Shown here piece after piece: positions 10,702 through 37,429 of a DNA stretch of 47,869 bases. The stretch lies in contig CAYUVA010000037.1 of assembly GCA_964448115.1 (NCBI GenBank), positions 1 through 47,869 on the forward strand. Reading direction: 5' to 3'. Positions within the stretch are counted from its first letter, which is position 1; each line of letters starts with the position of its first letter. The DNA comes from an uncultured bacterium (lineage in GTDB: Bacteria; CAYUVA01). The position numbers were made by a program, and so were the translations under genes. The notes under the pieces were generated by a model that saw nothing but the letters and a program-made list of their open reading frames with translations, did no database searches and had not been told where the DNA came from.

Positions 10702-10885
10702 TGTTATTGCCGTCCCGCAATAAATGCGGGGGGAATCCAAAGGAAAAAATGTTATTACCTTATGAGCCCTGCGCAAGCTAGTGAGAAACTCGGAATGATC
10801 CCGACCTTATCGGTAGCTTGGTATTACTGACATTTTGAGACAAACCCTTTTTATTCCCCCCCGTTTACGGGGAGATGAAGGGTGA
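10702..10885. repeat. Cluster of REP-like GC-rich palindromes in a divergent intergenic region
   Basis: CCCGCA-ATAAA-TGCGGG (10714-10730) followed by GGGAATCCA; CCGA-CCTTA-TCGG (10801-10813); CCCCG-TTTA-CGGGG (10859-10872) flanked by CCCTT...AAGGG. Confidence 0.4.
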
Positions 10886-11006
10886 GTAAACTGTCTCGAA
10901 GTGGCGACCTAAATCTTATGTCATGAGGAGTGCCGACTTTTGGGATCTTGTTTTTAATACCATTTGCTAAAAGTGCATAAATTCAAACTTTAGAACAAAT
11001 TATATA

Positions 11007-11035
11007 TTGACATCAGAGAAAGGGTGATATATAAA
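11007..11035 (+). promoter_or_regulatory. Candidate sigma70 promoter for the barrel-caspase genes
   Basis: TTGACA (11007-11012), 17 nt, TATAAA (11030-11035), in an AT-rich context. Confidence 0.5.
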
Positions 11036-11131
11036 TATTGTAATCAGGATAACGAAATTACAGAAAATCTCGGACAGAACTTAGAAAAGGTACTCAGTGA
11101 ACTTTCTATGTAGATAAATATCAAAAGGAAA

Positions 11132-12370: not shown

Positions 12371-12372
12371 GG

Positions 12373-14658: not shown

Positions 14659-14751
14659 GGATATACTAAAAATGTATAAGCCAGGAAGCACAACTAGCAT
14701 GTTACTTTAAGAAAAGGTAATATTATAGCATAATCATCTAAACTGGAGGAC

Positions 14752-17283
14752 ATGATGATGAACAAGGCATTATGCTCGGTATCACTTAGCCTTCTGGCAG
14801 CGATGATAATTTGGGCTGTGCCGACCATAGCTCAAGGCACCACGATCACCGTCGGGCACGGCGGCGGATACGACTACGGCACCATAACAGCGGCACTTGC
14901 AGCAGCAACATCGGGAGATACGATAACCGTCGCCGATGGAACTTATAATTACAATAGTGGAGAGTCTTTTCCGCTAGTTATGAAGCAAGGCGTTACACTG
15001 CAAAGAGAAAATGAAAGCATTCAGCCAATAATCGCAGGAATATCAACCCAATCGGTGATAGAGGTCGAAAATATATCCGATCCGGAAAACACCATCATCG
15101 ATGGCTTTATAATCCGCGATGGCGGTGGTAAGGATGTATCTGGCGAACGATATGGTGGCGGGATCTTCATGTATCTTTCATGGATAACCATCAGAAACTG
15201 CAAATTCACGGCGAACAACGCCAAGTATGGCGGCGGAATGTTTCTAGATAAATCAAGTCCTAACATTTTTTATTGTGAATTCGAGGATAATGAATCTTCA
15301 AGTCGTGGAGGTGGAATATATTGCAAGAATAACTCCAATGCGAACTTGTATAACTGCACTTTTATCAATAACAGCGCATCAGATTCTGGTGGCGGGATGT
15401 ATTGCTATGACTCTTCCCCCACCTTGACCGATTGCACCTTCAGCAATAACAGCGCAGATTATGGTGGCGGGATGTATTGCTCTTATTCTTCCCCCACCTT
15501 GTCCGGTTGCACCTTCAGCGATAACAGCGCATCAGATTATGGTGGCGGGATGTATTGCAAATCTTCTTCTTCCCCCACCTTGACCGATTGCAGCTTCAGC
15601 GATAACAGCGCATCTTATGATGGTGGCGGGATGTATTGCAAATCTTCTTCGCCCACCTTGACCGGTTGCAGCTTCAGCGATAACAGCGCATCAGATTCAG
15701 GTGGCGGGATGTATTGCTATTATTATTCTTCCCCCACCTTGACCGGTTGCACCTTCAGCAATAACAGGGCATCAGATTCAGGTGGTGGGATGTATTGCTA
15801 TTCTTCTTTCCCCATCTTGACATATTGTACCTTCACCAGAAACAGCGCATCAGATGAGGGCGGTGGGGTGAATTGCCATTATTCATCCCCAACATTAAAA
15901 AATTGCATATTATTTGGAAATATTGTTAATAATTATGGTGGAGGAATCAGTTGTGATAATGCTGATCCAATAATTATAAATTCAATAATCAATTTTAATA
16001 TTTCAAATATTCAGGGAGGCGGTATTCATTGTGATAATGACTCAGATCCAACTATTAAAAATTGTGTCATTACAAGGAATAAAACCAGTAGAGAAGGCGG
16101 CGCTTTGTTCACCTCTAACAACTCCAATCCTATATTGAAGAATACCATACTATGGAATAATTCACCTGATGAAATATATGATTTTATGAGTCCACCTGAT
16201 GTTATCTATTGCGACATAAAGGGTGGATATTCAGGGACAGGAAATATCAATGCAGATCCATTGTGGGTAGATTATAATTATGATTTTCATCTTCTTCCTG
16301 GCTCCCCATGTATAGATGCCGGCACTAATCTAGGCGCGCCGGATACAGACTTCGATGGTCAGTTAAGACCAAATCCGAATACAGGAATTACCGATATAGG
16401 TGCTGATGAATTTTACTCAGGATATGTAACCCCAACTCCAAGACCGACCGCTACTCCCACTGTCACTCCAACACCGACTATAACTCCTACTTCAACAAGC
16501 ACACCAACATCAACGAATACCCCAACAGCTACATCAACGACCGTACCGACCTTTACGCCTAGACCAACCTATACATCAACGCCTACATCCACTCCGAGGC
16601 CATACCCCTATAATCGCATTTTAGTTGCCGGTTATTGTGATACTTATGTGGATAGAATGTTGACTTCCGATGTATTTATGTTATCTTTATCAGGAGCGCT
16701 TGATGGATATGATATTATTGGCGTTGAGCTTTGTTATCTTTACGGTAATTCAGCAATTCCCTTGGGTATAGCTCTCGAATACACACCGCCTTTCCATACA
16801 TTGTCGTTCATAATTAAAGAGTACTCAATTCCATCTGGCTCAATTCCCTTTGGCTTAGTTGCACATTACTTGCCGCCAAAGGACAGCGAGCTATGGCCAT
16901 ATTTAGTTGTGCCACCGGGACCGCCGACGCTGACGCCGACAACTACACCGACCGATGTCCCCACCTTGACACCGACACCGTCTGTTACGCCCACCGCCAC
17001 GCCGACAGAGACCCCCTTCCCGCCGACAGCGTGCTTTACGATTGATCAAGATTGGCATGTACCAGATGATCCCTTCAAGTGCGATGCCTCTTGCTCCGAA
17101 GGGGCGACCGAGCTTGAGTACTGGTGGGACTGGGACGATGGAACTGGCTATCACCAGGGCAGCGACTACGAGGAGCATGCCTATACTTGGGACGATCTTG
17201 GTTATCATGATATCACGCTTAAGGTTATCGATCTTTATAATCAGGAGGATACATATTCCATCAGGATAGAGGTTGTGGAGTGA
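14752..17283 (+). CDS. Secreted parallel beta-helix repeat surface protein with Pro/Thr linkers and a C-terminal PKD-like domain
   Basis: GGAGG RBS; signal peptide; YGTITAALAAATSGDTITVADGTY...GESFPL start; GGGMYC..SSPTL..C.FS.N repeats; GNINADPLW...DFHLLPGSPCIDAG...DIGADEF cap; PTACFT...DASCS...YWWDWDDG...ITLKV PKD-like end. Confidence 0.88.
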   Translation: MMMNKALCSVSLSLLAAMIIWAVPTIAQGTTITVGHGGGYDYGTITAALAAATSGDTITVADGTYNYNSGESFPLVMKQGVTLQRENESIQPIIAGISTQSVIEVENISDPENTIIDGFIIRDGGGKDVSGERYGGGIFMYLSWITIRNCKFTANNAKYGGGMFLDKSSPNIFYCEFEDNESSSRGGGIYCKNNSNANLYNCTFINNSASDSGGGMYCYDSSPTLTDCTFSNNSADYGGGMYCSYSSPTLSGCTFSDNSASDYGGGMYCKSSSSPTLTDCSFSDNSASYDGGGMYCKSSSPTLTGCSFSDNSASDSGGGMYCYYYSSPTLTGCTFSNNRASDSGGGMYCYSSFPILTYCTFTRNSASDEGGGVNCHYSSPTLKNCILFGNIVNNYGGGISCDNADPIIINSIINFNISNIQGGGIHCDNDSDPTIKNCVITRNKTSREGGALFTSNNSNPILKNTILWNNSPDEIYDFMSPPDVIYCDIKGGYSGTGNINADPLWVDYNYDFHLLPGSPCIDAGTNLGAPDTDFDGQLRPNPNTGITDIGADEFYSGYVTPTPRPTATPTVTPTPTITPTSTSTPTSTNTPTATSTTVPTFTPRPTYTSTPTSTPRPYPYNRILVAGYCDTYVDRMLTSDVFMLSLSGALDGYDIIGVELCYLYGNSAIPLGIALEYTPPFHTLSFIIKEYSIPSGSIPFGLVAHYLPPKDSELWPYLVVPPGPPTLTPTTTPTDVPTLTPTPSVTPTATPTETPFPPTACFTIDQDWHVPDDPFKCDASCSEGATELEYWWDWDDGTGYHQGSDYEEHAYTWDDLGYHDITLKVIDLYNQEDTYSIRIEVVE
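15370..15840 (+). repeat. Six near-identical in-frame tandem repeats (75-81 nt) encoding beta-helix rungs
   Basis: Units start at 15370, 15448, 15523, 15604, 15682 and 15763 (lengths 78, 75, 81, 78, 81, 78). Shared core AACAGCGCA...GGTGGCGGGATGTATTGC...TCCCCCACCTTG...TGCA(C/G)CTTCAGC. A degenerate seventh unit starts at 15841. Confidence 0.95.
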
Positions 17284-17378
17284 GGCGTGAGGCTTGGTTA
17301 TTGAACCACAAAGGCACCAAGGCACGAAGAGGAAAGTGATACCGTGATAAGGTGATACCGTGAAGAGAGGATGGTTAA
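17283..17378 (+). repeat. Dispersed modular intergenic repeat, copy 1
   Basis: AGGCGTGAGGCTTG (17283-17296), AACCACAAAGGCACCAAGGCACGAAGAGGA (17304-17333), GTGATACCGTGA twice (17336, 17352), GAGGATGGTTAA (17367-17378). Three of these modules recur on the minus strand at 36139-36206. Confidence 0.75.
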
Positions 17379-17561
17379 ACAAGGTTAACTGATTCAGCGC
17401 TGAAACAGTTACCAGGTATCAGGTTAGGCGCGGGGGAGAATGAAAAACTTTCGTTTGATAGTTGAGTCTGCAATTTTTTCGTGTAATTCTCGCTTTTAGC
17501 AAACCTGCTAAGCATTTTTTAATTTCTTATGTTGGAATTACAGTAACCGGCTAATCAATTC

Positions 17562-17590
17562 TTGACATAAGATGAACCCTCGCTGATAAT
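17562..17590 (+). promoter_or_regulatory. Sigma70-type promoter of pspA
   Basis: TTGACA (17562-17567), 17 nt, GATAAT (17585-17590). AAGGAG RBS at 17612-17617. Confidence 0.65.
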
Positions 17591-17624
17591 GATTGAGCAC
17601 AAGAATAAGCCAAGGAGTAAAGGC

Positions 17625-18320
17625 ATGTCATTTATAAAACGATTCATCGATGTCATAAGAGCCAACATCAACGAACTTATCGATAAAGCCGAGCATCCGG
17701 TCAAGATGTTGGAACAGCTTATCCGAGATATGGAGGATAACTACAAGAAAGCCAAGGTCAAGACAGCCCAGGTAATGGGAGAGCTTAGGGTGATTGAGAA
17801 TCGTCTCGCTAAAGCCAAGGATCTTGAGAAAGCATGGAAGGATCGCGCTATGCTCGCCCTTAGAGAAGATAGGGAAGACTTGGCTAAAGAGGCGCTGCTT
17901 AAACGCCGAAGCGCCAGCCAGGATCAAGCATTCCTGCAACAGGAACTCATCAAACAAAAAGAAGCAGCCGAGACCCTGCAAAAGGGGCTTAAGGCGCTCG
18001 AGCTTAAGATCGAGGAGGCTAAGAAGAAAAGAGCAATACTTGCGACCAAGGTAAGAAGGGCACAAGTCCAAAAGGAGCTGAGAGAGGTAATCACCGGTAT
18101 TGATGATGAGGGCTTGATCAAGGCTTTCGATGATATGGAGGAACGAATAGAGCTGATGGAGGCACAGGGCGATGCGCTGAAGGAGCTGGAAGGTATCAGT
18201 GCTGAACAACAACTTCAAGCGCTGGAGGCTGACCACGAGCTTCAAAAGGAGTTAAAGGCACTCAAGGCAGAGATGGGCATACTTCCTAGCGAAGACATGG
18301 ATGAGCCAGAGAAAGACTAG
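17625..18320 (+). CDS. pspA: PspA/IM30 family protein
   Basis: MSFIKRFIDVIRANINELIDKAEHPVKMLEQLIRDME, REDLAKEAL, AFDDMEERIELMEA. ATG 17625 follows AAGGAG (the ORF track starts at 17589). Confidence 0.93.
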   Translation: MSFIKRFIDVIRANINELIDKAEHPVKMLEQLIRDMEDNYKKAKVKTAQVMGELRVIENRLAKAKDLEKAWKDRAMLALREDREDLAKEALLKRRSASQDQAFLQQELIKQKEAAETLQKGLKALELKIEEAKKKRAILATKVRRAQVQKELREVITGIDDEGLIKAFDDMEERIELMEAQGDALKELEGISAEQQLQALEADHELQKELKALKAEMGILPSEDMDEPEKD

Positions 18321-18362
18321 GTAGAGACCAAAGTTTCCCTTCATTCATATAAGATTTTTTTT

Positions 18363-19874
18363 ATGGTAGTCTTGTTATCAATATTCATGGTGGTTTCCTT
18401 GCTTGGCTCCACTGCCGTTTACTTCAGCAGGCGAACAGTAGCCAACAAGATTGCTGTAGGGCTTGCAGTAGCCTTTTTCGTGCTAGCTTGTCTGATTCTA
18501 CTTTTCGCTTACGGCTCATTTGGGTATGGTGGAAGGATAGTTAAGCTGCTCGAATACCCTTGGCTAGCCAATCAAAGCGTCTATTCAGTGCGGTTGGCTT
18601 TTATAGTAGATCCCCTTTCATGCATTATGATTCTGCTGATCTCTCTGATGCTGCTGGTAAATACGATCTATTCTGTTGACTATATTGGTTCTGGCAACCC
18701 TAGATACCTAAGCAGCCGGCTGCGCAATATCCGTCGTTATCATTTTTGGATGATTTTCTATGCCTTTTCCCTGGCAGGCGTTGTTCTGGCGCAGAATTTC
18801 CTTACGCTTTTGTGGTTCTGGGAGCTTGCAACCGTATGTACCTGGGCGCTCATCTCTTATTATACGATCAAGGCTAAGGCATCCAAGGCGAGTCAGAAGA
18901 TGATAATATTAAACTCCCTTGGGGATTTATTTTTTATCGTCGCAGTCTTGGTACTTTACAGCAATGCCCACAGCCTGGAGTTTTCCTCGATCAGTAGCTT
19001 ATCCTCAGGACTCAGCAGCCTGGTATTCATCCTGCTATTTCTGGGTGCCTCGGCAAAGTGCTCCATGATGCCCTTTTTCTCCTGGCTTGCGGATGGTGCC
19101 AAGATCTCTGCTCCAATCGGAGCATTTATCCAGGGAGTCGGGCTTGTCAAGGTTGCCGTGATCGTGTTTGCTCGGATACTATTAAGCAATCAAGGTAGCG
19201 CAGGGAATACCACTTCATATCTGATGTTGCTTATGAGCCTAGGCACCATCATTATCGCAGCATCCTTGGTCATCTATCAGCGTGATCTCAGGCGAGTGGT
19301 AACCTTCGTAACTATAACCCAGGTGGGATACATGATGCTTGGATTATCCTTATATTCCAGGGGCATACAAGAGGGGATACATGCTGCCTTGCTCGTTCTG
19401 GTTGGACATGCAGCCGCGGCAACTTTATTCATACTGGCAGTAGGCTATATCGGTAATCGTAGCGGGAATACAAGAAAAGATGCCATCTCAGGTCTGTACC
19501 ATCGGATGCCCTTGGCTGCCATCAGCCTGCTATTAGGAGTGATCTCCCTTATCGGATTGCCACCCTGGGGGCTTTTTTGGGGTAAGCTGGATCTGTTTGC
19601 AGCCTGCTTGCACTACAAAGGCTTTATAGGCATTGTTAGTTTTATTGTTATCGCCTTGGAGACTATTTGGATGATGTTAGTTTTACTCCACATTGCACAT
19701 GAGATCATCTTCGGCAAGCCACCTAGGAGCCTAAGGGGCTCGGATGAAGACCAAAAGCAGGTGGCAGGAGAGGTCTTCTTCATAAGGATAGTTCTGGTTA
19801 TTTTGATATTTCTCAACCTGGTTTTCTCGCTTTTGTTTTTACCTTTAATCACCAAGGTGAGGGTGATCTTGTGA
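18363..19874 (+). CDS. Antiporter-like membrane subunit (HyfD/NuoL/MrpA family), partly degenerate
   Basis: FIVDPLS...IYSVDY, LWFWELATVCTWALI, SAKCSMMPFFSWLADG, RDLRRVVTFVTITQVGYM, IGLPPWGLFWGK. Confidence 0.85.
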   Translation: MVVLLSIFMVVSLLGSTAVYFSRRTVANKIAVGLAVAFFVLACLILLFAYGSFGYGGRIVKLLEYPWLANQSVYSVRLAFIVDPLSCIMILLISLMLLVNTIYSVDYIGSGNPRYLSSRLRNIRRYHFWMIFYAFSLAGVVLAQNFLTLLWFWELATVCTWALISYYTIKAKASKASQKMIILNSLGDLFFIVAVLVLYSNAHSLEFSSISSLSSGLSSLVFILLFLGASAKCSMMPFFSWLADGAKISAPIGAFIQGVGLVKVAVIVFARILLSNQGSAGNTTSYLMLLMSLGTIIIAASLVIYQRDLRRVVTFVTITQVGYMMLGLSLYSRGIQEGIHAALLVLVGHAAAATLFILAVGYIGNRSGNTRKDAISGLYHRMPLAAISLLLGVISLIGLPPWGLFWGKLDLFAACLHYKGFIGIVSFIVIALETIWMMLVLLHIAHEIIFGKPPRSLRGSDEDQKQVAGEVFFIRIVLVILIFLNLVFSLLFLPLITKVRVIL

Positions 19875-21979
19875 TCGGAATTATTTTGGCAAATATCGGT
19901 TTAGTTGCCCTGATAGTCATTGGAATATTGATCTATTTCACCCAGGATACTGAGCAAGGGCAAAGCTTCGTGCGCAGGATATCATTCTGGTTCGTTGCGG
20001 CAGCTTCCCTTATCAATATCATATTATCGCTATCGGTATTGATCTCGGGAAGTCCTTTATTTTTCAATATCAGCACAGTCTTCATTAAGCCACTTCTCTT
20101 TGAGATCGGTTTCAAGCTCGATACATTAAGCGCGTCCTTTCTTTTACTCATCAGCATCGTTAGTGTTGCGGTCACCGGTTTTGCTGCTCGTTACATGGAG
20201 CGTTTCTTAGGGGAACTGAAGCATTTTTATCCTCCCTATCTTTTCTTGATCGCCTCTGTTATGTGGTGTCTGATCGTAGAGAATCTTTTTCTATTTTTCA
20301 TTTTGCTTCAGATCATCATCATCTCTTCCTACCTGTTGCTTTGTTATAATAAATCTCGCGAGGAGAAGTTGGTTAGCGAGTATCATTACTTAGTCTCAAA
20401 ACAGCTCGGCTTGATTCTACTTTTAATCGCCATGTTGCCCCTGGTTTGGCATATCATACCATTATCAGGAGCTGGCTTCAGCGGAACTTGCGAATCCTTG
20501 AGCTTGCTTTCCGATAGCTCGCCGGTCCCTGCTTGGATCATTTACCTGGTCCTGGCAGTTGGTGCTCTGATATTCCTCCAGATGTGGCCGCTGAGAGGTA
20601 AAGGGCTAGTTGAATCGCTGGTATCTCATCCAATGCCCGGCATCCTCGCACTTCAGATATTTCCACCCTTGATAGGATTTTACATACTGATGCGCCTGGT
20701 GTCCTTTGGATTTCAGCCTGGCAGCAGCCATTACATATTCGGTTTCATGGCAGCAGCCCTAGGTGCTATCTCTTGCACCAGGGGGGTGGTAACTGCCCTT
20801 GGCAAGCGTGATCTACTCATCTCTTCAGGATATATTCTGCACTCTTATTATGGATTCATACTGTTTATGCTTGGTGTCGGTTGCGTGGTATCTGTTTCTC
20901 GATCGCTGCTATTTTTGCTTTTGTTTCTGTGCGCAGGGATGCTTTTATTCATAACTATCCTGTCTTATACGATGCTAGGTGTAAGCCTGGGCAGCGTCCA
21001 GTTTTTCATTGGACACCTGGAGCCGAGCCGCCTAGGAAACCTGAGAAGGTATCTCCCTATGACCTCTTTTTGCTTATTCTATGCTGCAATCACATTGTGC
21101 GGCTTGCCTCCCCTTGCCGGATTCCTGCCTATGTCCTTGTTCATATCGGGGAGTTTCGAGGCGGGAGCTTATTATCCGATCTTCGGTTTAATAGGCATCG
21201 TAATATTCATCTTTTCAATTTCTATTGCCATTTATCTTGTCAAGGAACTATCCCTGAGTGTGTTTGGCGAGGCGCAAAGCTCGGTACGCAAGGCTCGCCC
21301 AAAGGAAGCCGAACAGGCTAAGGCGATGCTTTGGACGCAGTGGAGCCTATTGGGCGTGAATACCGTGCTGGCATTGTTTCCAGGATTGCTGGCGATGTGG
21401 GGCTTCAGGGCGATACTGGGAATGATACAAGATCGAAATATCCCAATGCCCTTTGACCATCTTTTCTTTGGGAGACCATTCTTGGCGGTTTTAGTCAAGA
21501 GGCCGACCCTTATGGGGGAAGATGTCCTTATCGGGACCTGGATACCGCTGGCTGTAATCTCGATATTGACCGTGATCACCCTGTTAACTCTATTTTTAGC
21601 CAGGAGATTCCATAAAAGCTCCATCGAGGAAGATCTATCGCAAAACGATGCGACCTTTGCTGAGATCAGCGAGGAGATAATCTCCCAGTCCCCTCATCCC
21701 ATCCCTATGCCTGCTGGTGCCTTGAACAAGCTTGCCTATCAACAGAAGGCGGGTGGCTTCAGCATCAGGATGCCAAGCTTCTTTACCAGACTTGCAGATA
21801 TAGACAGTTGGCTTTATGGACCGATCCTCAATCGTTTCCTTCGCATCAGTGAGCTTCTCAAGAAATTCGAGCCGGGGCGGATGGAAAGCCAGCTCTCATG
21901 GCTGTTGGCGCTCTGTTTGCTGCTGGCGGCTATTATCCTGATGGTTAATTGGAATATCTTCGGGTTTACAAAATGGTAG
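19871..21979 (+). CDS. Antiporter-like membrane subunit (HyfB-like), degenerate
   Basis: FKLDTLSASFLLLI, LGNLRRYLPMT, LCGLPPLAGF, SVFGE; about 700 aa with a HyfB-like C-terminal extension. GTG start overlaps the upstream stop. Confidence 0.75.
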   Translation: MIGIILANIGLVALIVIGILIYFTQDTEQGQSFVRRISFWFVAAASLINIILSLSVLISGSPLFFNISTVFIKPLLFEIGFKLDTLSASFLLLISIVSVAVTGFAARYMERFLGELKHFYPPYLFLIASVMWCLIVENLFLFFILLQIIIISSYLLLCYNKSREEKLVSEYHYLVSKQLGLILLLIAMLPLVWHIIPLSGAGFSGTCESLSLLSDSSPVPAWIIYLVLAVGALIFLQMWPLRGKGLVESLVSHPMPGILALQIFPPLIGFYILMRLVSFGFQPGSSHYIFGFMAAALGAISCTRGVVTALGKRDLLISSGYILHSYYGFILFMLGVGCVVSVSRSLLFLLLFLCAGMLLFITILSYTMLGVSLGSVQFFIGHLEPSRLGNLRRYLPMTSFCLFYAAITLCGLPPLAGFLPMSLFISGSFEAGAYYPIFGLIGIVIFIFSISIAIYLVKELSLSVFGEAQSSVRKARPKEAEQAKAMLWTQWSLLGVNTVLALFPGLLAMWGFRAILGMIQDRNIPMPFDHLFFGRPFLAVLVKRPTLMGEDVLIGTWIPLAVISILTVITLLTLFLARRFHKSSIEEDLSQNDATFAEISEEIISQSPHPIPMPAGALNKLAYQQKAGGFSIRMPSFFTRLADIDSWLYGPILNRFLRISELLKKFEPGRMESQLSWLLALCLLLAAIILMVNWNIFGFTKW

Positions 21980-22896
21980 TTATAACATCCACAGCCTGGT
22001 TATTTTTTTACCTGCTACTTTTACTGCTCATCTCTCCAGCCGTGGAATGGTTTGCGCGCTGGGTAAGAGCTTTGCTCATGGCAGATAAACAACCTAACCT
22101 GCTTAGCCTGTACAAGAGGCTGGTAAATATGGCTGGTAGTTATACACCGCAGAGCCTCAAAGCACCTTATGGAGGCATTTTCCCCCCGTTTTTCCTTGCT
22201 TTAGTGATCACTGCTGGATTGATGTGCCCACTATGTATTGGGAGCCAAACAGGCTCAATAGGAGAGATTACCGCATTTGTCGGCTTGATCTCCCTGGGAC
22301 TTATCATGTTTATTCCAGTCGGATTCGCCTACCGGAGGAGTTTCAAGGAGATACTGGGATCTCTTGAGATCAGGCAGGCGATTGTCGGCGATGCGATATT
22401 TCTGCTAGGGATATTGGTCTATAGTCTGAGGAATCTTGGCTCACATTTCCATAGCATTGACAATCTAGGATTTTGTATTTCCAGCCTGTTGGCTATCCTG
22501 GTGATGCTATGGGGCATTAGGTCCCTTGCCGGCAAGCTACCATTCCCGCTCTACGGATCGCCTCCTCCTGCCGAGATATCCTTAGTTTCCAACTACAATC
22601 CGCATGGTCAAGGCTTATTAGCACTTGCTTTCTACCTGAAGAATTGTCTTTATTACAGCCTTGTATTAACAGCTTTGGTTAATGAAATAGCCATGCAATT
22701 AAGGGAGTTGGAGCTAACATTTTGCCCTTTGGCAGGCATTACTTTACAGATACCCTCGATGTTCGTGCTGGCAGGTATCCTGTCAGCGATAAGCGCATTA
22801 CTATGGAGCAAGGAGGTCAAGATAACCTGGACACATCACAGTATAATCCTCGCATCAGGCGTTTTAGCAGCGATACTCAGAATGATAGGAGTGTGA
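21973..22896 (+). CDS. HyfC/NuoH-like membrane subunit, degenerate
   Basis: LLLISPAVEWFARWVRALL...PNLLSLYKRLV resembles the NuoH/HyfC N-terminus; GKLPF...EISLVSNY...GLLAL resembles the loop region. Size and position fit. Confidence 0.65.
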   Translation: MVVITSTAWLFFYLLLLLLISPAVEWFARWVRALLMADKQPNLLSLYKRLVNMAGSYTPQSLKAPYGGIFPPFFLALVITAGLMCPLCIGSQTGSIGEITAFVGLISLGLIMFIPVGFAYRRSFKEILGSLEIRQAIVGDAIFLLGILVYSLRNLGSHFHSIDNLGFCISSLLAILVMLWGIRSLAGKLPFPLYGSPPPAEISLVSNYNPHGQGLLALAFYLKNCLYYSLVLTALVNEIAMQLRELELTFCPLAGITLQIPSMFVLAGILSAISALLWSKEVKITWTHHSIILASGVLAAILRMIGV

Positions 22897-22897
22897 G

Positions 22898-23557
22898 ATG
22901 CTTACTTTTTTCTTGAACAGCCTGGCTTTGCTCACTTTGGTTATAGTTGTGATCTGGACCCTTATCCCCCGGATCAAGGGCACCATCTTGTATATTATTT
23001 TCTTACTAGCCATAGTTACCCAGGCTAGCTTGATCCTGATTATCGGGAGGTTTTTTGAGCTACTGTTGCCCCTTGTTTTATACTTGGGTATCCGCATTTT
23101 GCTCGCCTGGCAATTGCAGGGTCGGATGAAGGAAGCGGATTCGAGGATAGTGAGCAATGGATTACCCATCAATCGCCGGCAGCTTTTATGGATTTACAGC
23201 TCGATATTTATTTTCATATTACTCTTCGGGGGATTGAATATGGTTTGGCTCTTGGACTGGCTGATGACTAATTTCCTCGAATTCCCGTCTTATGGAGGCG
23301 GTGGTTTTCTGATCTCGCTGCTTGTGGTTATCATCGGGTTATTCAGCCTCGCATCAAGCCGAAGCCATAATGAATTTGGTTTATCGTTGCTTTTAGCCGA
23401 CGGGGGACTGTTGATTTTTCTTCTTTTGCTCAACCAGTGGGGAAGCTCAATTGATTTAGGAATATTTTCCCTGTTTGTCCCCGCATTTCTATTAACTGAC
23501 AGATACCTTGGCAACCGTCAAAGAGAGTTAAAACACGAGCTGGAGGTTAAGCATTGA
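22898..23557 (+). CDS. HyfE-like membrane subunit (putative)
   Basis: 219 aa, mostly hydrophobic, LVVIIGLFSLASSRS...GLSLLLADGGL; lies between the HyfC- and HyfF-like genes. Confidence 0.55.
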   Translation: MLTFFLNSLALLTLVIVVIWTLIPRIKGTILYIIFLLAIVTQASLILIIGRFFELLLPLVLYLGIRILLAWQLQGRMKEADSRIVSNGLPINRRQLLWIYSSIFIFILLFGGLNMVWLLDWLMTNFLEFPSYGGGGFLISLLVVIIGLFSLASSRSHNEFGLSLLLADGGLLIFLLLLNQWGSSIDLGIFSLFVPAFLLTDRYLGNRQRELKHELEVKH

Positions 23558-25053
23558 GCGAGTCGGTTAACAACCTAGTAATGTTCACTCCGCTTTTGCC
23601 TCTATTTTTCGCGCTTCTTTTATGGCTGCAAGGAGCCGGTAAGAAGGACTCTGTGAAACTTAATCTGTTTCTCATAGGCAGCCTTATGGTTGTTAGCTTC
23701 AATCTTTATTATGTCATTAGGACGACAGCTACCGTTTTGGTTGCTGCCCATCATCTCTTTTTAGTAGATGCTATCGCCACCCTATTTTCGTTAGCTACCA
23801 GCTTGATTATTTTGATGGCTGGGATTTACACCTTCTTTTATTCAAGGCGCTCGCGGCAAACAAGCAAAGGTCGCAGCCCGGTGATAGGCTCTTATCTGGC
23901 TAGCCTGTTGCTGCTGATGGCGACCATGAATTATGGATTCTTTTTAAGGGATCTCTTATATGGCATCTTTTTGTTTATCATATCTGCGGCAGCGGTATGT
24001 CTCGCCTTAGCATCGTTCAACAGAGAGGAGCCTATCTTTATTGCACGAAGATTTATCAAGTTTATCGCTTTGGGCGCGATTTTAGTTGTTCTAGGTTCTT
24101 TTGTATTAAGCGGACTTTTTTACGATTCTGAGGTCTATCCGCTTTTCCCCGGCTTGGATCATTTTTTGGCAGAGAATCGGGGAGAATGGGGATTGGAGTC
24201 TGTATGCGCCCTGGCTGGAGGTTTGCTGTTCTTCGGATTCTTGTTTTTTAGCGGCGGATTTCCGGCTTATATATGGCAGAAGAACTACAGCAAGCGCTTG
24301 CGGGTGGTGGATGCTTTCCTTATCAACGGCTTATTCTCATGCATCGGGCTGTATGGGATGTATCATTGGGTCGCGCCAATTGCACACAGGATAAAACATC
24401 TTGGGATGATCATCATCTTTATAAGCCTTGTCGGCATGTTGTTCGGAGCCATAAGGAGCTTCACCCAGAAGGAACTTCGCAAGTATCTTTTGTATGTAGC
24501 TATTGTGCAGGTCGCCATGGTAATGCTGGGGATCACTGTAAAGAACGGTTCCGCGTTCTCCGGTGGATTATTCCATATATTCAACCAGCTTTTGCTTCGC
24601 TTCTGCCTGGTCGGCGTGCTAGGAGGTGTCATGTTTCGATGTCGCAGCGCTCGAATTACCCAATTGGGAGGGCTGGCGAAAAAGATGCCCATATCGTTTG
24701 TTCTTTATTTCGGGATAGCGTTGGCTCTGGGAGGGATGCCGCCTTTCAGTTCTTTCTGGAGCTTTACTAGCATTGTACTGGGACTCGTTGAGGGGGGATA
24801 CCTCTGGGTTGCCATTGCGGTTGTATTCGCTAATCTGTTGTTTTTTGTATCACTACTCAGTATGGGCAGGAAAATATTCCTGGGAAGAACCATGCCGGCT
24901 GCCGTCTCGGATGATCTGACCATCAAGGAACCTCCATTCGGTTTGCTGGTGCCGGTTACTATTATAGCGGTCATCACGCTGATTTTAGGTCTCTTCCCTC
25001 AAATTATATCACCTTTGATAAAAGCAGCAGGGGACGCTCTGCTGTCAGCGTAG
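23554..25053 (+). CDS. Antiporter-like membrane subunit (HyfF/MrpD/NuoM family), degenerate
   Basis: FLVDAIA, TQKELRKYLLYVAIVQVA, LGGLAKKMP, LALGGMPPFSSFWS, LILGLFP. Confidence 0.8.
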   Translation: MSESVNNLVMFTPLLPLFFALLLWLQGAGKKDSVKLNLFLIGSLMVVSFNLYYVIRTTATVLVAAHHLFLVDAIATLFSLATSLIILMAGIYTFFYSRRSRQTSKGRSPVIGSYLASLLLLMATMNYGFFLRDLLYGIFLFIISAAAVCLALASFNREEPIFIARRFIKFIALGAILVVLGSFVLSGLFYDSEVYPLFPGLDHFLAENRGEWGLESVCALAGGLLFFGFLFFSGGFPAYIWQKNYSKRLRVVDAFLINGLFSCIGLYGMYHWVAPIAHRIKHLGMIIIFISLVGMLFGAIRSFTQKELRKYLLYVAIVQVAMVMLGITVKNGSAFSGGLFHIFNQLLLRFCLVGVLGGVMFRCRSARITQLGGLAKKMPISFVLYFGIALALGGMPPFSSFWSFTSIVLGLVEGGYLWVAIAVVFANLLFFVSLLSMGRKIFLGRTMPAAVSDDLTIKEPPFGLLVPVTIIAVITLILGLFPQIISPLIKAAGDALLSA

Positions 25054-25066
25054 TCTTATCCGCATT

Positions 25067-27145
25067 ATGAGACAGGTTATCCCATTAAATAAAGGCTGGC
25101 GATTTTCACCTGTTGAGCAACTGCTCGAGGAGCACAAGGACTATGTCTTCGATGATTCCTCGTGGATACCAGTAGAGCTTCCCCATCAATGGGCATCATT
25201 GTTTAGCCTGCGCCATTACGCAGGTAAGGCTGTTTATCGCCTCCGCTTTGATTTGGAACAGGTCCCCAGGGAGCGGTTCTATTACTTGAGGTTAGGTGGG
25301 ATCTTCTATTATTTCAGGGCTTTCTTAAACGGGAATCTGATCGGAGAATCCCGGGGATACCTATATGATCATGTTCTCGATATAACCATGCATCTTCTGC
25401 GCAGAAATATACTTGTAATCGAGGTTTATTGCCCGTATTCGGAGGGCTTGGTGAACCCCGGGGGAATAGCCTTGCCGGTAACCCTGGAGGCAAGGTTGCC
25501 GATAGCGATCACCCAAGCGAGATTTTCTCCAAGCGTGTTATCGCAAGGAAGAGCTAAACTGGAAGCAAGGCTCAACTGTCTATTACAAAATAAATATTTA
25601 CTGGATCAAAAGGGGATTAGGAATTATCGATCACCACAGGAGGTTGCCTTTCGATACCGCATTGAGCCGATCGGCTTCGATGCCCCGATTACCGAGATGG
25701 AAACCAGCCTGGATCTCTATGATAACGACAACTTCATATTTCATGTCATCGAGTTGAATGAGCCGCGCCTCTGGTGGGGCTGGGACCAGGGGATGCCTAA
25801 TTTATATAGAGTCATAGTGGAACTTCATGGCGAAAAAGGGCTCTTGGATAGAATCGAGTCATCGGTGGGGATCCGATGCATCGCCATGCATAACAAGGCG
25901 CTGTTTCTCAATGGACGAAAATTATATCTGCGAGGCACCAATTACCTTCCTACCAGGCAACTTATGTCAGAGATTACAGAGCAACATCTGCGCACCAACC
26001 TTGATCTGATCAAGAAGGCTAATATCAACACGGTAAGGGTATTATCGCATATTGAACCACCAGCTTTTTATGATATCTGCGATGAGATGGGCATTCTAGT
26101 CTGGCAAGATTTCCCACATCATGGGGATTTAAGATCCTTTGCGACTCGCCAGGCAGCCAATCAAGCGGAACAAATGACTCGCTACCTGCACAATCATCCC
26201 AGCGTGGTGCTCTACTGCTCACATAGCAAGCCTCTTTTCCAGGAAATATCAAAAACCCGAACCAATGCTCGCCAAACGAGTTCATTATCATCTTCTCGAT
26301 TAAACAACTGCATGCTTGCCAGGATGTTAAAGGCGGTCATAGCAGCCTCTGATCCGACAAGGGCTGTTTTGTCTAGTCCGGGAGCGAGCTTTCACTGTGG
26401 AAGGTGCAAGAGGCTATTGAATCGGCTTGAGGGACGGCTCAGGATATTGAAACGACATTTGAAGCTGGTGGGGCAGCTTAGCGCTAAGGCATTCCCAAGT
26501 ATAGAAAACATACCCAAGTTGTTTCATGACAGTATGGAGGATAAGTCGGGTCTTGATAAGTGGTTATTAGAAGACCTGCTGCAAGATGATCAGTTGGAGT
26601 CCTATATCCCCATGCATCAAAGGATTAGCCTGGAGGACTTGGTTAATGCCACCCAGGGATACCAGGCTTTTTTTATCAAGGTGATCATCGAGCGATTGAG
26701 ACTGCTCAAATACAATCTGAACAATGGTGTTATGCATTACTGCTTCAACGATTGCCATCCAGCCATATCATACTCGGTTGTTGACTACTGGGGTCATGCG
26801 AAGAAGGGCTATTATGCGATAAAGGAGAGCTTTGAGCCGCTACAAGCGATTGCTAAGTTGAAATTGGAATCCTACCTGACGCAGGTTAAGGAGGAAATCC
26901 CTTTATTTCTTGTAAACGACACATCAAATGAGTATAATGATATATCTGTGGAAGCTCTTGTTATGCTAAACGATGAGCTAGTTACTTGTGGTCAATGGAC
27001 GCGCAGCATCGAGGCTGATGGGAGACCTGTCGAGCTGGGCAGGCTTCGCTTCGATCCCTTCAAGCCGGGACTATATGAACTAAAAACAAAACTTTATGCA
27101 AGCCAAGGTGTTATACATAACAACTATGAGTTGCTCGTCATATAG
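25067..27145 (+). CDS. GH2 (beta-mannosidase-like) fold protein apparently lacking catalytic glutamates
   Basis: EPRLWWGWDQGMPNLY, LNGRKLYLRGTNY, ANINTVRV, FYDICDEMGILVWQDF, NHPSVVLYC, YSVVDYWGHAKKGYY. No signal peptide. Confidence 0.85.
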   Translation: MRQVIPLNKGWRFSPVEQLLEEHKDYVFDDSSWIPVELPHQWASLFSLRHYAGKAVYRLRFDLEQVPRERFYYLRLGGIFYYFRAFLNGNLIGESRGYLYDHVLDITMHLLRRNILVIEVYCPYSEGLVNPGGIALPVTLEARLPIAITQARFSPSVLSQGRAKLEARLNCLLQNKYLLDQKGIRNYRSPQEVAFRYRIEPIGFDAPITEMETSLDLYDNDNFIFHVIELNEPRLWWGWDQGMPNLYRVIVELHGEKGLLDRIESSVGIRCIAMHNKALFLNGRKLYLRGTNYLPTRQLMSEITEQHLRTNLDLIKKANINTVRVLSHIEPPAFYDICDEMGILVWQDFPHHGDLRSFATRQAANQAEQMTRYLHNHPSVVLYCSHSKPLFQEISKTRTNARQTSSLSSSRLNNCMLARMLKAVIAASDPTRAVLSSPGASFHCGRCKRLLNRLEGRLRILKRHLKLVGQLSAKAFPSIENIPKLFHDSMEDKSGLDKWLLEDLLQDDQLESYIPMHQRISLEDLVNATQGYQAFFIKVIIERLRLLKYNLNNGVMHYCFNDCHPAISYSVVDYWGHAKKGYYAIKESFEPLQAIAKLKLESYLTQVKEEIPLFLVNDTSNEYNDISVEALVMLNDELVTCGQWTRSIEADGRPVELGRLRFDPFKPGLYELKTKLYASQGVIHNNYELLVI

Positions 27146-27186
27146 ATATTGAAATGAAAAGATCACACCATAATCAGGAGGATTAG

Positions 27187-28029
27187 ATGAAAGTCAAGAT
27201 GCCTGTATTGTATGCGAGTATCCTCGGAATGCTGGTATTATGCCTTTCAGCAGCCGATGCCCTCCAGGTCAAGGAAGGCGCTTGGGTTCTTTACGAGAAG
27301 ACCTTTACTAACGACAAGGGTGTCAAGCTAACTGGAGATCTCAAGATCTCTGCGTTGGGTAAGGAAAAATTCGAGGGTAAGGACTGTAGATGGATCGAGA
27401 TCCATGAGAACCTCGCAGATAAAAAACGAATCAGCAAACTACTGGTCGAAATCAAAGAACCGAAGGATCTGCAGGACAACCTCCAATTTTGGGGCGAGGT
27501 GCACCGCCTTATCATTCAAGATCAAGGAAAGGAGGCAATGGAGATACCTAGGCAGAGTTATGCTAACTATCTGCCTAACATCCTTGAGTACCCCAGAAAG
27601 GGCGGGAAACATCAACCGACCGTAAAGAAGAGTCAGATCAAGGAACTTAAAAAGGAAAAGCTCGTCATCGCTGATAAGGGAAAAATAAAGGCAGAACATA
27701 AAAGACAGCAGGTCTCCGAGGTATCCAAGATAAACTTGGGATTCATCAACCTGACCGATACACTTGACATCCAAAGCGATCTTTGGGCTAGCGACAAGGT
27801 GCCACTTACCCAGGTCGCCAAGTTCCAAGTCAAGTATAATGTCATATCTGTGAATAAGAAACCCGATGGCGAGGAAGTCAAAAAGGGACCGAAAACTTCT
27901 CAGCTTACGCTAGTGATTAAGGATTATGGAGATAAGGGCGCCAAGAGCATGATCAGCGGCGAGGTAAAGAAGATGCAGCTACCCAAGTTCCCCTTCCTCA
28001 TGCCACAACAACAAAAGGAAGGTAAGTAG
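27187..28029 (+). CDS. Secreted Lys-rich hypothetical protein
   Basis: AGGAG RBS and a signal peptide (MKVKMPVLYASILGMLVLCLSAADA). No family recognised. Confidence 0.75.
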   Translation: MKVKMPVLYASILGMLVLCLSAADALQVKEGAWVLYEKTFTNDKGVKLTGDLKISALGKEKFEGKDCRWIEIHENLADKKRISKLLVEIKEPKDLQDNLQFWGEVHRLIIQDQGKEAMEIPRQSYANYLPNILEYPRKGGKHQPTVKKSQIKELKKEKLVIADKGKIKAEHKRQQVSEVSKINLGFINLTDTLDIQSDLWASDKVPLTQVAKFQVKYNVISVNKKPDGEEVKKGPKTSQLTLVIKDYGDKGAKSMISGEVKKMQLPKFPFLMPQQQKEGK

Positions 28030-28273
28030 GAGCAATATAAGAAATCCCAAATGGAGTCCTAAAAGAAGAGCCTATCTACCGGGCACGAGATTGCATTATC
28101 GTTTCCACACTATCATTTCTGTGCACTAAAGCATAAGAATAAGCAAAACTAAATTTGTTAAAATTTGGCATTGGTTGCCATTGTTGGGTTATAATATCTA
28201 CCGTAGCTGATTACGCTACATACCTGCCCGACAAAACGGGCAAGACAATGAAAAATGGGGATGTTAGGATATC

Positions 28274-28795
28274 ATGGATAGAGTTCGCTTGCTTTCAATT
28301 AATATAGCTGTTGCCATCTTTCTCTCCATGAATCTATTCGGTTGCCTAACAACGCGAAAGATAATGGTTGCGCCCGAATACAAGGCGCTCGAAGAGACGA
28401 TAACAAGATTCTGGGAGGCTCGTGTCAGCCAGGATTTCGAGACCATGTATGATATGCATACTCCCCTTTTTACCGATAAGGTCAAGTATGATGATTACTA
28501 CAAGAGGGCTAAGGGCGGTATTGTCGGCACTGTGGAGAAGTTCAAGATAGAGCACATCGAGCTTTCAGAGGATGGAAAAAGTGCTCGCAGTGCTGTTCTT
28601 AAAACTTTCATAATTTATTTCCTTTATGGAGTTGAGCATCGAACCGATATAATCGACTACCAACAATGGATCATGGATGAACAAAGCGGTACCTGGTATA
28701 TAGACGAGGATGCCAAGGACTTCAAACCAGGCAAAAAACAAGACGAGGGATCTGCCCCGTCATTTATGGAGATCTTTGATATTCCAAGCCGATGA
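28274..28795 (+). CDS. Putative lipoprotein, possibly NTF2-like fold
   Basis: Lipobox-like LFGC after a hydrophobic stretch; LEETITRFWEARVSQDFETMYDM...WIMDEQSGTWY. Confidence 0.7.
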   Translation: MDRVRLLSINIAVAIFLSMNLFGCLTTRKIMVAPEYKALEETITRFWEARVSQDFETMYDMHTPLFTDKVKYDDYYKRAKGGIVGTVEKFKIEHIELSEDGKSARSAVLKTFIIYFLYGVEHRTDIIDYQQWIMDEQSGTWYIDEDAKDFKPGKKQDEGSAPSFMEIFDIPSR

Positions 28796-28798
28796 GAT

Positions 28799-34486: not shown

Positions 34487-34490
34487 TCTT

Positions 34491-35552: not shown

Positions 35553-35613
35553 CCTGGTGCAAAGTATATATTGAGTTGATTACATTCGACTATATAAAAA
35601 TCCCCGGCATGGA

Positions 35614-37408: not shown

Positions 37409-37429
37409 AGGTTTTTCATTGGTTTCGGT

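Follow-up and report, generated by a model that had tools for sequence, protein, structure and literature searches.

The charged residues of HyfB-, HyfF- and HyfC-type subunits serve in proton transfer or in coupling to the peripheral arm, and Mrp systems require two active large subunits together with MrpB, C, E, F and G. For complex I, proton conduction by isolated antiporter modules has been reported (PMC11496545). Large and small subunits of the hydrogenase type persist in Ehr complexes, which are presumed to have remained redox-driven (PMC6349859). Two PSP surveys name no complex-I-type partners of PspA in their main text (PMC11237479, PMC9239133). Here, we describe a locus in which pspA precedes genes for subunits of this type. 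The locus belongs to one genome, and relatives of the locus as a whole were not found in any of the collections searched.

Organisation of the locus and identity of its products

The membrane genes follow pspA in the order D-B-C-E-F (Table 1). The seven successive frames from pspA to the GH2-like gene are all open over 9.5 kb in total, and the sequence is identical across contigs from three runs of one sample. A previous reading made from the letters alone (the sequence-only reading) had described tight or overlapping packing with intact frames, and the coordinates agree: 42 nt separate pspA from the hyfD-like gene, which overlaps the hyfB-like gene by 4 nt; the hyfB- and hyfC-like genes overlap by 7 nt (C start at 21973); 1 nt lies between the hyfC-like gene and the E-position ORF; the latter overlaps the hyfF-like gene by 4 nt, and the GH2-like gene follows after 13 nt. 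The single sigma70-like promoter of the same reading can be retained in part. It is the best promoter-like site between positions 17000 and 29000 and lies 35 nt ahead of ATG 17625, which is preceded by an AAGGAG ribosome site; the alternative pspA ATG at 17589 falls within the promoter-like site. However, the total number of such sites in this region is at chance level (19 seen vs 19.7 expected in shuffles). The pspA gene, the membrane genes and the GH2-like gene are predicted to form one operon behind a single promoter-like site. The gene for the Lys-rich protein starts 41 nt past the GH2-like gene and has an AGGAGG site before its ATG, and it could be transcribed on its own from a promoter-like site at 26910-26938. 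Its product has a signal-peptide-like N-terminus and no family matches in Pfam or NCBIfam.

Table 1. Features of the locus; positions are those of the window, i.e. the whole stretch of DNA that was analysed (47,869 nucleotides)
Feature	Position	Strand	Remarks
sigma70-like promoter-like site TTGACA-17-GATAAT	17562..17590	+	11/12 consensus matches
pspA	17625..18320	+	231 aa from ATG 17625; 243 aa from ATG 17589
hyfD-like antiporter-like subunit	18363..19874	+	503 aa; charge axis mostly retained
hyfB-like antiporter-like subunit	19871..21979	+	702 aa; charge axis gone
hyfC/nuoH-like subunit	21973..22896	+	307 aa; 315 aa from TTG 21949; acidic loop and most invariant charges gone
orphan polytopic membrane protein, hyfE position	22898..23557	+	219 aa
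hyfF-like antiporter-like subunit	23554..25053	+	499 aa; charge axis gone
GH2-like protein, cytoplasmic	25067..27145	+	692 aa; without both catalytic glutamates
secreted Lys-rich protein	27187..28029	+	280 aa; operon membership uncertain

The proteins of the locus were searched with Pfam and NCBIfam models. Proton_antipo_M (PF00361; cut-off 21.5 bits) matches the D-, B- and F-like proteins with 153, 46 and 74 bits, respectively (F-like, 2.2e-20). The best model for the D-like protein is HyfD (NF005097, 2.9e-81), and the HyfB model is covered by the B-like protein over positions 12-666 of 669 (2.3e-27). The NCBIfam models of Mrp subunits A and D match as well (1e-27 to 1e-40). In a maximum-likelihood tree, the D-, B- and F-like proteins fall within the HyfD (support 99/97), HyfB/HycC (97/98) and HyfF (92/94) clades, a placement that is less sure because the end branches are long (2.72 for the B-like and 3.25 for the F-like protein vs a median of 0.9; 2- to 3.6-fold the median across the three proteins). 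No relatives of the B-like protein with more than 28% identity were found. The closest HyfB relative that was found (25% identity, E 3e-28) lies in a complete hyf locus (the G004 locus), in which D and B are followed by C, E and F. Likewise, the F-like protein has no detected relatives above 34% identity, and the 34% match spans 41% of its length. The hyfC-like protein gave no Pfam or NCBIfam matches and just two matches among 1.84 billion representatives, both of them PF00146 proteins (3.6e-7 and 3.2e-6). Its comparison by hhalign with a HyfC/HycD/NuoH alignment yielded a probability of 95.2 (E 2.9e-8) over 248 collinear columns, and 0.2 in the reversed control. For the E-position protein, which has about 6-7 hydrophobic segments, no significant similarity to anything was found. 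Its place and size are those of E. coli HyfE (216 aa), and it is weakly linked to NuoK-like clusters (scores 0.84-0.89); it can be called HyfE-like by these features only. Thus, the proposed likeness of five genes to HyfD, B, C, E and F stands for D, B and F by the tree and for C by hhalign, but for E only by the features just named. The products have 503, 702, 315 (C from TTG), 219 and 499 aa, vs 479, 672, 315, 216 and 526 aa for HyfD, B, C, E and F of E. coli. The locus almost certainly carries the genes of a Hyf-type membrane arm beside pspA.

NiFe large-subunit and Fe-S genes are lacking at the locus. Elsewhere in the genome, PF00346 is confined to two nuo operons, and PF01058 occurs in the same operons and at a site on another contig (C2), where it adjoins a conventional NiFe large subunit. 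Searches with E. coli HyfG, HyfI, HyfH and HyfA using phmmer revealed no orphan in the genome. The missing redox module of the sequence-only reading is therefore borne out, and orphan hyfG or hyfI genes that could complete the complex from elsewhere were not found in the genome. The arm has no redox module of its own and is very probably not a redox pump.

The pspA product matches PF04012 (PspA_IM30; 5.5e-40) and TIGR02977 over positions 1-217 of 219, the latter with 141.6 bits, which is below the cut-off of 243. It is 24-39% identical to 30 PspA proteins and is the sole PF04012 match in the genome (94% complete), in which PspC was not found. At 30 PspA loci sampled from as many other genomes, no antiporter-, NuoH- or GH2-like ORF lies within 1.5 kb. 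A GH2-fold gene ends the series as had been noticed: GH2 domains were matched by Pfam, and the protein has no hydrophobic segments. Its best solved relatives are beta-mannosidases, whose WCGNNE motif is replaced by YCSHSK. The acid/base NE, present in 15/15 homologues, corresponds to S387-K388, and the nucleophile Glu of the (S/T)E(F/Y)G motif, present in all 14 homologues with data, corresponds to Q470. By alignment, the GH2-like protein is without either catalytic glutamate.

Charge-axis residues

The axis residues were audited in a MAFFT alignment that also contained 40 database homologues and the Hyf, Hyc and Nuo proteins of E. coli. The B-like protein keeps none of the seven: it has no TM7 Lys, and the other axis columns hold Q147, L267, F348, F352, G356 and M421. 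The F-like protein has I143, F232, C263, H341, Q345, R349 and F404, of which H341 is the only one of six HyfF axis residues to be kept, a Lys having been replaced by R349. No displaced Glu or Lys was found within 14 residues of the axis columns in TM5, TM7, TM8 and TM12. The TM5 Glu and the TM7 Lys are present in 40/40 homologues, and in 71 and 79, respectively, of a second, rougher set (n=85); the joint absence of the TM5 Glu, the TM7 Lys and the TM12 Lys/Glu occurs in 0/125 homologues of both sets. The motifs from which loss of the Glu/Lys axis had been read by eye, FILLQ and IFLQMWPL in the B-like and IFLFI, FFSGGFPAYIW and NQLLLR in the F-like protein, are all present at the canonical columns, and the alignment confirms this loss without shifted replacements. 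The same holds for the NuoH-like loop, which had been said to lack its acidic motif: the hyfC-like protein has PFPLYGSPPPAEIS at the PFDxxEAExE site of the family. Moreover, a conserved-charge audit revealed that most invariant NuoH-type charges are gone together with the acidic loop.

The D-like protein keeps five of the seven axis residues (E154, K232, K263, H349 and K408), with Q257 and A353 in place of the HyfD His and Lys. Two claims have to be corrected here. The HAAAA motif taken as disarmed is present, but it is no sign of disarmament because E. coli NuoM and NuoN carry A352 and S337 at the same column. Likewise, the term "non-pumping" does not hold as worded since five axis residues are retained, so one ion path through the D-like subunit may survive. 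This path may be impaired too, given the lack of the HyfD TM8 His and TM11 Lys.

Proposed role and alternative explanations

The arm genes are kept, the redox genes are absent, the relay residues are stripped from most of the arm proteins and PspA is co-encoded, which suggests that a former pump has taken on a new task in the membrane. We tentatively propose, as a whole reading, a redox-less, selected descendant of the formate-hydrogenlyase-2 (hydrogenase-4, Hyf) arm. The five proteins probably continue to form an arm-like complex. Within it, the B-, F- and C-like subunits would be structural, and the D-like subunit would offer the one path left for protons or cations. The complex would be unable to conserve redox energy and would be co-produced with PspA from one promoter. 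Its role could lie in the energetics of the membrane or in stress homeostasis; in a genome without detected PspC, it would most likely be a partner or anchor of PspA that responds to the PMF. A functional link between arm and PspA is conceivable in view of the one promoter-like site, the tight spacing, the sole pspA and the undetected PspC; direct binding of PspA by the arm is unlikely.

It is rather doubtful that the arm is a pure scaffold, i.e. a platform that anchors PspA oligomers instead of PspBC or LiaI and in which no subunit moves ions. Such a scaffold would fit the loss of functional charges from two of the three antiporter-like subunits and the NuoH-like subunit, the two HyfD axis residues missing from the D-like protein (Q257 and A353), and a genome with a sole PspA and no PspC found. 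However, the D-like protein retains the Glu-Lys pair, Lys in TM8, His in TM11 and Lys in TM12, all of which its neighbours have lost; this contrast is hard to explain if none of these residues were needed. Moreover, the contact between arm and PspA is putative. A stand-alone, reduced-Mrp-like transporter for cations or protons, with one active subunit, structural partners and a co-regulated or merely adjacent PspA, appears equally improbable. It would agree with the mostly kept D-like axis (5/7), the module common to Mrp and complex I, the matches to the Mrp A and D models, the reported proton conduction of isolated antiporter modules (PMC11496545) and the lack of such neighbours at the PspA loci sampled elsewhere (0/30). 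However, the small Mrp families were unmatched in the Pfam and NCBIfam searches, gene order and tree point to Hyf, and it would be left unexplained why three subunits and the GH2-like protein, all of them dead, have been retained.

The locus might also be a relic, in which the hydrogenase was lost, the membrane genes are drifting without function and the adjacency to pspA is accidental. Very long tree branches, active-site loss in four proteins including the GH2-like one and the occurrence of the locus as a singleton would be in line with decay, which is nevertheless very unlikely. Seven successive frames have stayed open at 25% identity or less, and overlapping start and stop codons are preserved. 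The codon scores of the locus genes (z -1.5 to +0.6 vs the 1810 long ORFs of the genome) and their GC3 (0.50-0.56; genome mean 0.567) are native. At family columns with a conservation of 80% or more across 47 reference rows (42 uncharged, 9 charged), the B-like protein keeps 28/42 uncharged residues, comparably to the working E. coli subunits HyfD (28/42) and NuoM (29/42), and 3/9 charged ones; the F-like protein keeps 22/42 and 1/9 (Fisher p 0.03). With these few columns, preferential charge loss gives p 0.13 at the 80% and 0.029 at the 60% threshold for the B-like protein, and 0.03 and 0.10 for the F-like protein. Selected repurposing over decay, as had been suggested, is favoured because of the long intact frames, the native codon use and the retained structural residues, which speak for a real, selected, redox-less variant in a single genome. 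It is most improbable that the arm serves a partner encoded elsewhere. Such a partner could be a soluble enzyme docking on the C-like subunit or the product of the C6 nuo operon (B C D E F G I A H J K L N), where nuoL and nuoN are present but nuoM is missing; the D-like protein is the only extra antiporter-like protein of the genome with the axis kept (5/7). However, the D-like protein is HyfD by the tree and not NuoM, the loop residues to which a peripheral arm binds are gone from the C-like protein, and neither nuo operon (C6 being the contig of one of them) is genetically linked to the locus.

Comparison with known systems

Like the proposed descendant of a Hyf arm, Ehr complexes (PMC6349859) are relatives of group 4 hydrogenases without hydrogenase chemistry; the locus differs in having neither a large nor a small hydrogenase-like subunit. 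In the Psp and Lia systems (PspA-PspBC and LiaH-LiaI), too, a gene for a PspA/IM30 protein leads an operon that also encodes integral membrane proteins. However, the partners at the locus are complex-I-type subunits, none of which is named in the main text of PMC11237479 and PMC9239133, and the genome has no detected PspC. With Mrp (CPA3), the locus shares a redox-independent complex based on PF00361 subunits, and the D-like protein has the residues such subunits use. In contrast to Mrp, only one subunit has the axis kept, the MrpB, C, E, F and G families are unmatched at the locus and the phylogeny is Hyf-type.

The Hyf arm (HyfB-F) of E. coli and Pectobacterium atrosepticum, as described in PMC13645896, resembles the locus in its five membrane subunits of matching sizes, namely one antiporter-like protein from each of the HyfB, HyfD and HyfF clades, a NuoH-type anchor and a small polytopic protein encoded between C and F. 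The order C-E-F is shared as well. The locus differs from it by the lack of HyfA, G, H, I and FdhF and by the loss of axis residues from the B- and F-like subunits and of the loop and most charges from the C-like subunit. Moreover, D precedes B as in the G004 hyf locus, pspA lies ahead of the arm genes and the gene for a dead GH2-like protein lies behind them.

Organisation and surroundings of the locus

The locus comprises pspA, five genes for hydrogenase-4 (Hyf)-type membrane proteins and a gene for a GH2-like protein. The proteins resembling HyfD, HyfB, HyfC/NuoH and HyfF are called D-, B-, C- and F-like, and the orphan that occupies the place of HyfE is called the E-position ORF. All genes between positions 17562 and 27145 lie on the + strand and are tightly packed, with gaps of 42, 1 and 13 nt and overlaps of 4, 7 and 4 nt, and none of the intergenic gaps contains a terminator-like site. 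The sigma70-like site in front of pspA is one of 19 such sites found between 17000 and 29000 versus 19.7 expected from shuffles, which corresponds to chance level. Three overlapping 16-nt copies of a repeat with a motif of about GTGATACC, spaced by 8 nt (17333-17364), and a 26-nt palindrome, TAACTGATTCAGCGCTGAAACAGTTA (17386-17411), precede the pspA promoter site by about 200 nt. These elements could serve as an operator or belong to the transcript end of the upstream gene.

Features of the pspA locus and its neighbourhood, and a reference hyfD gene from another genome
Feature	Position	Strand	Remarks
FadL-like outer-membrane protein gene	within 11132-17283	+	upstream of pspA
Gene for 763-aa protein	within 11132-17283	+	caspase (Peptidase_C14) and TPR matches; upstream of pspA
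Gene for 843-aa protein	within 11132-17283	+	beta-helix, Chlamydia-PMP-repeat and PKD matches; upstream of pspA
Sigma70-like site	17562-17590	+	TTGACA-17-GATAAT; 11/12 positions match; top site in 17000-29000
pspA	ATG at 17625	+	AAGGAG ribosome site before the ATG; downstream of the sigma70-like site
D-like gene	18363-19874	+	503 aa
B-like gene	19871-21979	+	702 aa
C-like gene	21973-22896	+	315 aa in the size comparison with HyfC
E-position ORF	22898-23557	+	219 aa
F-like gene	23554-25053	+	499 aa
GH2-like gene	25067-27145	+	follows the F-like gene
Secreted Lys-rich protein gene	27187-28029	+	280 aa; downstream of the GH2-like gene
Lipoprotein gene	28274-28795	+	173 aa; LFGC lipobox
O-antigen-ligase-like (Wzy_C) protein gene	28799-34486	+	1895 aa; TPR repeats
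GT9 heptosyltransferase gene	34491-35552	+
HyfD gene of genome G004	L027:13038-14489	minus	canonical reference

The genes downstream of the GH2-like gene constitute an envelope-biogenesis neighbourhood. Further away in the window, the G+C content of positions 4001-6000 is very low (0.269 versus about 0.48 for the genome). An ORF in this stretch (4483-6519, +) encodes a 678-aa protein without a Pfam family and lies directly behind an ABC ATPase gene (3573-4496). Moreover, a 573-aa ATPase with AAA_15 and AAA_21 matches, a type that is found in OLD-type/abortive-infection defence genes, is encoded at 39299-41020 (-).

Three sequencing runs of a single sample gave contigs that agree with the stretch 17500-27200 throughout, with no variants, and thus the odd residues of the locus are not assembly noise. 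The seven consecutive reading frames are open over 9.5 kb despite the low identity (25% or less) to any relative. The codon-use scores of the genes range from z -1.5 to +0.6 relative to 1810 long ORFs of the genome, and GC3 exceeds GC, as it does elsewhere in the genome. Horizontal transfer as the cause of the oddity is not supported because codon use and GC are native.

Identity of the membrane subunits

The hyf, nuo and hyc operons of E. coli K-12 served as annotated references, together with canonical hyf loci of four other genomes. The D-, B- and F-like proteins match PF00361 (Proton_antipo_M) with 153.3, 46.3 and 73.5 bits, respectively (gathering cut-off 21.5). HyfD is the best model for the D-like protein (273.6 bits; the runner-up NuoL reaches 158), and the B-like protein matches 12-666 of the 669 positions of the HyfB model. 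In a maximum likelihood tree of 25 antiporter-like proteins, the D-, B- and F-like proteins fall within the HyfD (ultrafast bootstrap/SH-aLRT 99/97), HyfB/HycC (97/98) and HyfF (92/94) clades, respectively, a placement that carries a long-branch caveat because their end branches measure 1.94, 2.72 and 3.25 changes per column versus a median of 0.9. The five membrane proteins comprise 503, 702, 315, 219 and 499 aa; E. coli HyfD, B, C, E and F have 479, 672, 315, 216 and 526 aa, respectively.

No relatives of the locus were found. Homologue searches returned the C-like protein itself alone, nothing above 28% identity for the B-like protein and nothing above 34% identity for the F-like protein. 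A scan of the genome collection with the D-like protein gave one irrelevant match, and metagenome scans with the D-like protein and with PspA gave no match. The best HyfB relative found (25% identity, E 3e-28) is encoded by genome G004 within a complete hydrogenase locus, in which D and then B come first, followed by C, E and F with HyfG- and HyfH-like genes between. In that locus (L027, G004:C11), a gene for a 136-aa 23S-rRNA-intervening-sequence protein (PF05635, 3e-35) lies between hyfB and hyfG at 9100-9510 (-).

Sequence comparisons with Pfam, NCBIfam and the PDB gave no match for the C-like protein, which stays under all Pfam and NCBIfam thresholds. When 1.84 billion representatives were searched exhaustively with HMMER, two proteins apart from the C-like protein itself were matched (3.6e-7 and 3.2e-6), and both are PF00146 (NuoH/HyfC) proteins. 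Moreover, an hhalign comparison with 14 HyfC, HycD and NuoH sequences gave a probability of 95.2 (E 2.9e-8) over 248 collinear columns, while the reversed control reached 0.2. Because of these two lines of evidence, the C-like protein is, judged from its sequence, a very remote NuoH-type (HyfC) subunit. It has kept R37, D148 (Glu in the family), K196, P198, F199 and E209, and the positions that correspond to E. coli NuoH R46, D63, K66, K70/E71, R148, D213, E216, E220, E228, K274, R291 and R293 are changed or deleted. The acidic PFDxxEAExE loop of NuoH-type subunits is not retained, and the lost positions include loop glutamates. Disrupting the loop glutamates in HycD is reported to impair FHL activity (PMC13645896).

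The HyfE identity of the E-position ORF cannot be assigned; it is favoured only by place, size, hydrophobic pattern and language-model leads to NuoK-like clusters (0.84-0.89). The hhalign probabilities are 0.1 against HyfE and 1.7 against NuoK, as compared to 92.2 for the positive control E. coli HyfE, and the comparisons with NuoJ and NuoA are at noise level. The ORF has no PDB match at E up to 10, no protein family and no relatives in 400 genomes, which are related at domain level only. Its single-sequence AlphaFold2 model (pLDDT 69.6, pTM 0.31) is too poor for use.

Loss of charged residues and of redox partners

The axis of antiporter-like subunits consists of conserved Glu, Lys and His relay residues across TM5, TM7, TM8, TM11 and TM12. 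We take its sites to be E144, K229, H254, H334, H338, K342 and K399 in E. coli NuoL, E144, K234, K265 and E407 in NuoM, and E133, K217, K247 and K395 in NuoN; the E. coli reference sequences do carry these residues. For the window proteins, axis residues were counted after L-INS-i alignment to 40 homologues from databases, with the corresponding E. coli Hyf proteins as the standard. The B-like protein has kept none of the seven HyfB residues (its columns contain Q147, a gap, L267, F348, F352, G356 and M421). In the F-like protein (I143, F232, H341, Q345, R349, F404), one of six HyfF residues is retained, namely H341, and a Lys is replaced by Arg; C263 in the TM8 column was left out of the count because Asn occupies this position in E. 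coli HyfF itself. The D-like protein (E154, K232, Q257, K263, H349, A353, K408) has kept five of the seven HyfD residues. The TM5 Glu and the TM7 Lys are each present in 40/40 homologues of this alignment, and in 71/85 and 79/85 homologues, respectively, of a second, rougher one. Neither set contains a homologue that lacks the TM5, TM7 and TM12 residues all together.

The sequence-only reading had claimed that Glu and Lys are gone from the B-like protein and had quoted altered motifs for the F-like protein. The loss withstood a check for an axis at shifted positions: there is no displaced Glu or Lys nearby, and the flanking motifs align well (e.g. GLPP..GF before TM12). A rescue by a shifted register was rejected. 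The same reading had regarded the motif HAAAA of the D-like protein, in place of HAxxK, as a further sign of disarmament. The motif had been read correctly. However, E. coli NuoM (A352) and NuoN (S337) are also devoid of this Lys, and thus the D-like protein is not demonstrably disarmed.

A residue-retention test was applied to family columns on which at least 80% of the 47 reference rows agree; this reference set leans HyfB-like. The B-like protein retains 28/42 uncharged and 3/9 charged residues, and the F-like protein 22/42 and 1/9, respectively; for E. coli HyfD and NuoM, the uncharged retention is 28/42 and 29/42. The Fisher p values for charged versus uncharged residues, which are based on small numbers, are 0.13 (80% threshold) and 0.029 (60%) for the B-like protein and 0.03 (80%) and 0.10 (60%) for the F-like protein. 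The direction of residue loss fits a selective loss of function in which the fold would have been retained.

No counterparts of HyfG, HyfI, HyfA or HyfH were found in the locus with Pfam and NCBIfam. In the genome, PF00346 occurs only in two nuo operons (contigs C6 and C9), and PF01058 in these operons and at one further site on contig C2, next to the large subunit of a conventional NiFe hydrogenase. A phmmer search in which E. coli HyfA, G, H and I were the queries revealed no orphan either, and orphan hyfG/hyfI genes elsewhere in the genome were rejected on the basis of all these searches. Thus, the earlier description of an arm without a redox module was confirmed by PF00346, PF01058 and phmmer, and so was the absence of mrpE, mrpF and mrpG from the locus, since the MnhB, MbhD, MrpE, MrpF and MrpG families have no match in any of its ORFs. 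The redox-less arm is real and has probably been selected; its mechanism is what we infer. As to the two nuo operons, the one on C6 (about 45303-57287) has the order nuoB C D E F G I A H J K L N and is without nuoM, and the one on C9 (about 33962-46950) consists of nuoA B C D G H I J K L M N and is without nuoE and nuoF.

PspA, the GH2-like protein and comparison with known systems

The window PspA matches PF04012 at 5.5e-40 (137.8 bits versus a cut-off of 33.9) and scores below the cut-offs of both the PspA and the LiaH equivalog models. It is the sole PF04012 match in the genome, and no match to PspC (PF04024) was detected there, at a genome completeness of 94.45%. One promoter-like site, the tight spacing, the sole pspA and the missing PspC speak for a possible link between PspA and the arm. 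Such neighbours were found within 1.5 kb at 0/30 sampled PspA loci in 30 other genomes. A complex prediction for the D-like protein and PspA, both supplied as alignments, scored 0.00, which gives no answer either way. In the main-text passages covered, one PSP survey names no partners of the antiporter, NADH, hydrogenase or Mrp kind (PMC11237479), and these terms have zero occurrences in the main text of another (PMC9239133). The literature searches turned up no paper describing such an arm, nor one that links PspA to antiporter-like subunits; the supplements of the surveys may list rare contexts. The former survey includes spermine synthase-7TM domain fusions among the PspA operon partners of other bacteria (PMC11237479). 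The window encodes two proteins with spermine/spermidine-synthase domains (6521-8950, 809 aa, and 44664-46784, 706 aa; both -), which are 8.7 and 17.5 kb off on the other strand.

The GH2-like protein matches GH2 fold domains as well as solved beta-mannosidases, and it has neither a signal peptide nor a hydrophobic segment. The WCGNNE motif of beta-mannosidases aligns with YCSHSK. The acid/base Asn-Glu pair is replaced by Ser387-Lys388, while Glu is present in 15/15 homologues from other genomes, and the nucleophile Glu by Gln470, while Glu is present in 14/14 homologues with data at this column. The closest full-length relatives (27-34% identity) retain both glutamates. Going by these replacements, which the sequence-only reading had missed, the GH2-like protein is a dead enzyme and does not qualify as an active GH2 protein. 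A 730-aa homologue with both catalytic glutamates intact is encoded in another genome (L080, G140:C50). Three antiporter-like genes, presumably the end of a nuo operon, lie 1.8 kb from it (7389-16469 for the whole stretch). They are on the opposite strand and convergent, and this proximity was judged to be coincidental.

It is conceivable, but with all steps taken together rather improbable, that the respiratory-type membrane arm has been exapted as an envelope-stress device that steers PspA. The de-charged HyfB-, C-, E- and F-like proteins would form a rigid platform, and the single live HyfD-like channel would read or bleed the proton-motive force. The conformational state of this channel would control where the sole PspA, a bacterial ESCRT-III relative, polymerises, and the dead GH2-fold protein may replace the lost peripheral arm. 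If true, PspA would have a partner of a new class, and a function would for the first time be assigned to an orphan complex-I-like arm. Reusable modules are regarded as the building blocks of complex I, Mrp and membrane-bound hydrogenases, and to our knowledge no function has been assigned so far to a membrane arm that persists without a redox or antiporter role. The locus may also be viewed as a natural experiment in one arm: the Glu/Lys relay has been removed from two antiporter-like subunits and spared in the third, the NuoH-type coupling loop has been removed, and fold-defining residues have been kept in the altered subunits. It yields testable predictions as to which residues are important in assembly and which in ion transfer. 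Should the PspA link be real, the PSP/ESCRT-III field would gain a new kind of membrane partner and membrane repair would be tied to a machine that is sensitive to the proton-motive force.

Among the known systems, Ehr complexes keep hydrogenase-like subunits (PMC6349859). The locus is therefore not an Ehr complex: Ehr is characterised by a hydrogenase-like large subunit without Ni-Fe ligands and a small subunit, whereas the locus has no PF00346 or PF01058 match. Mrp (CPA3) systems contain two active large subunits, MrpA and MrpD, together with MrpB, C, E, F and G. By contrast, an intact axis is found in the D-like protein alone, and since it has no small Mrp subunits and its phylogeny is of the Hyf type, the locus is not Mrp. 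Nor does it qualify as an FHL-2/Hyf complex: the hydrogenase subunits are missing, the axis is not conserved in each antiporter-like subunit, and the acidic loop is lost. However, with orthologues of HyfB, HyfD and HyfF and a HyfC-type anchor, the locus has its closest known counterpart in the membrane arm that belongs to FHL-2/hydrogenase-4.
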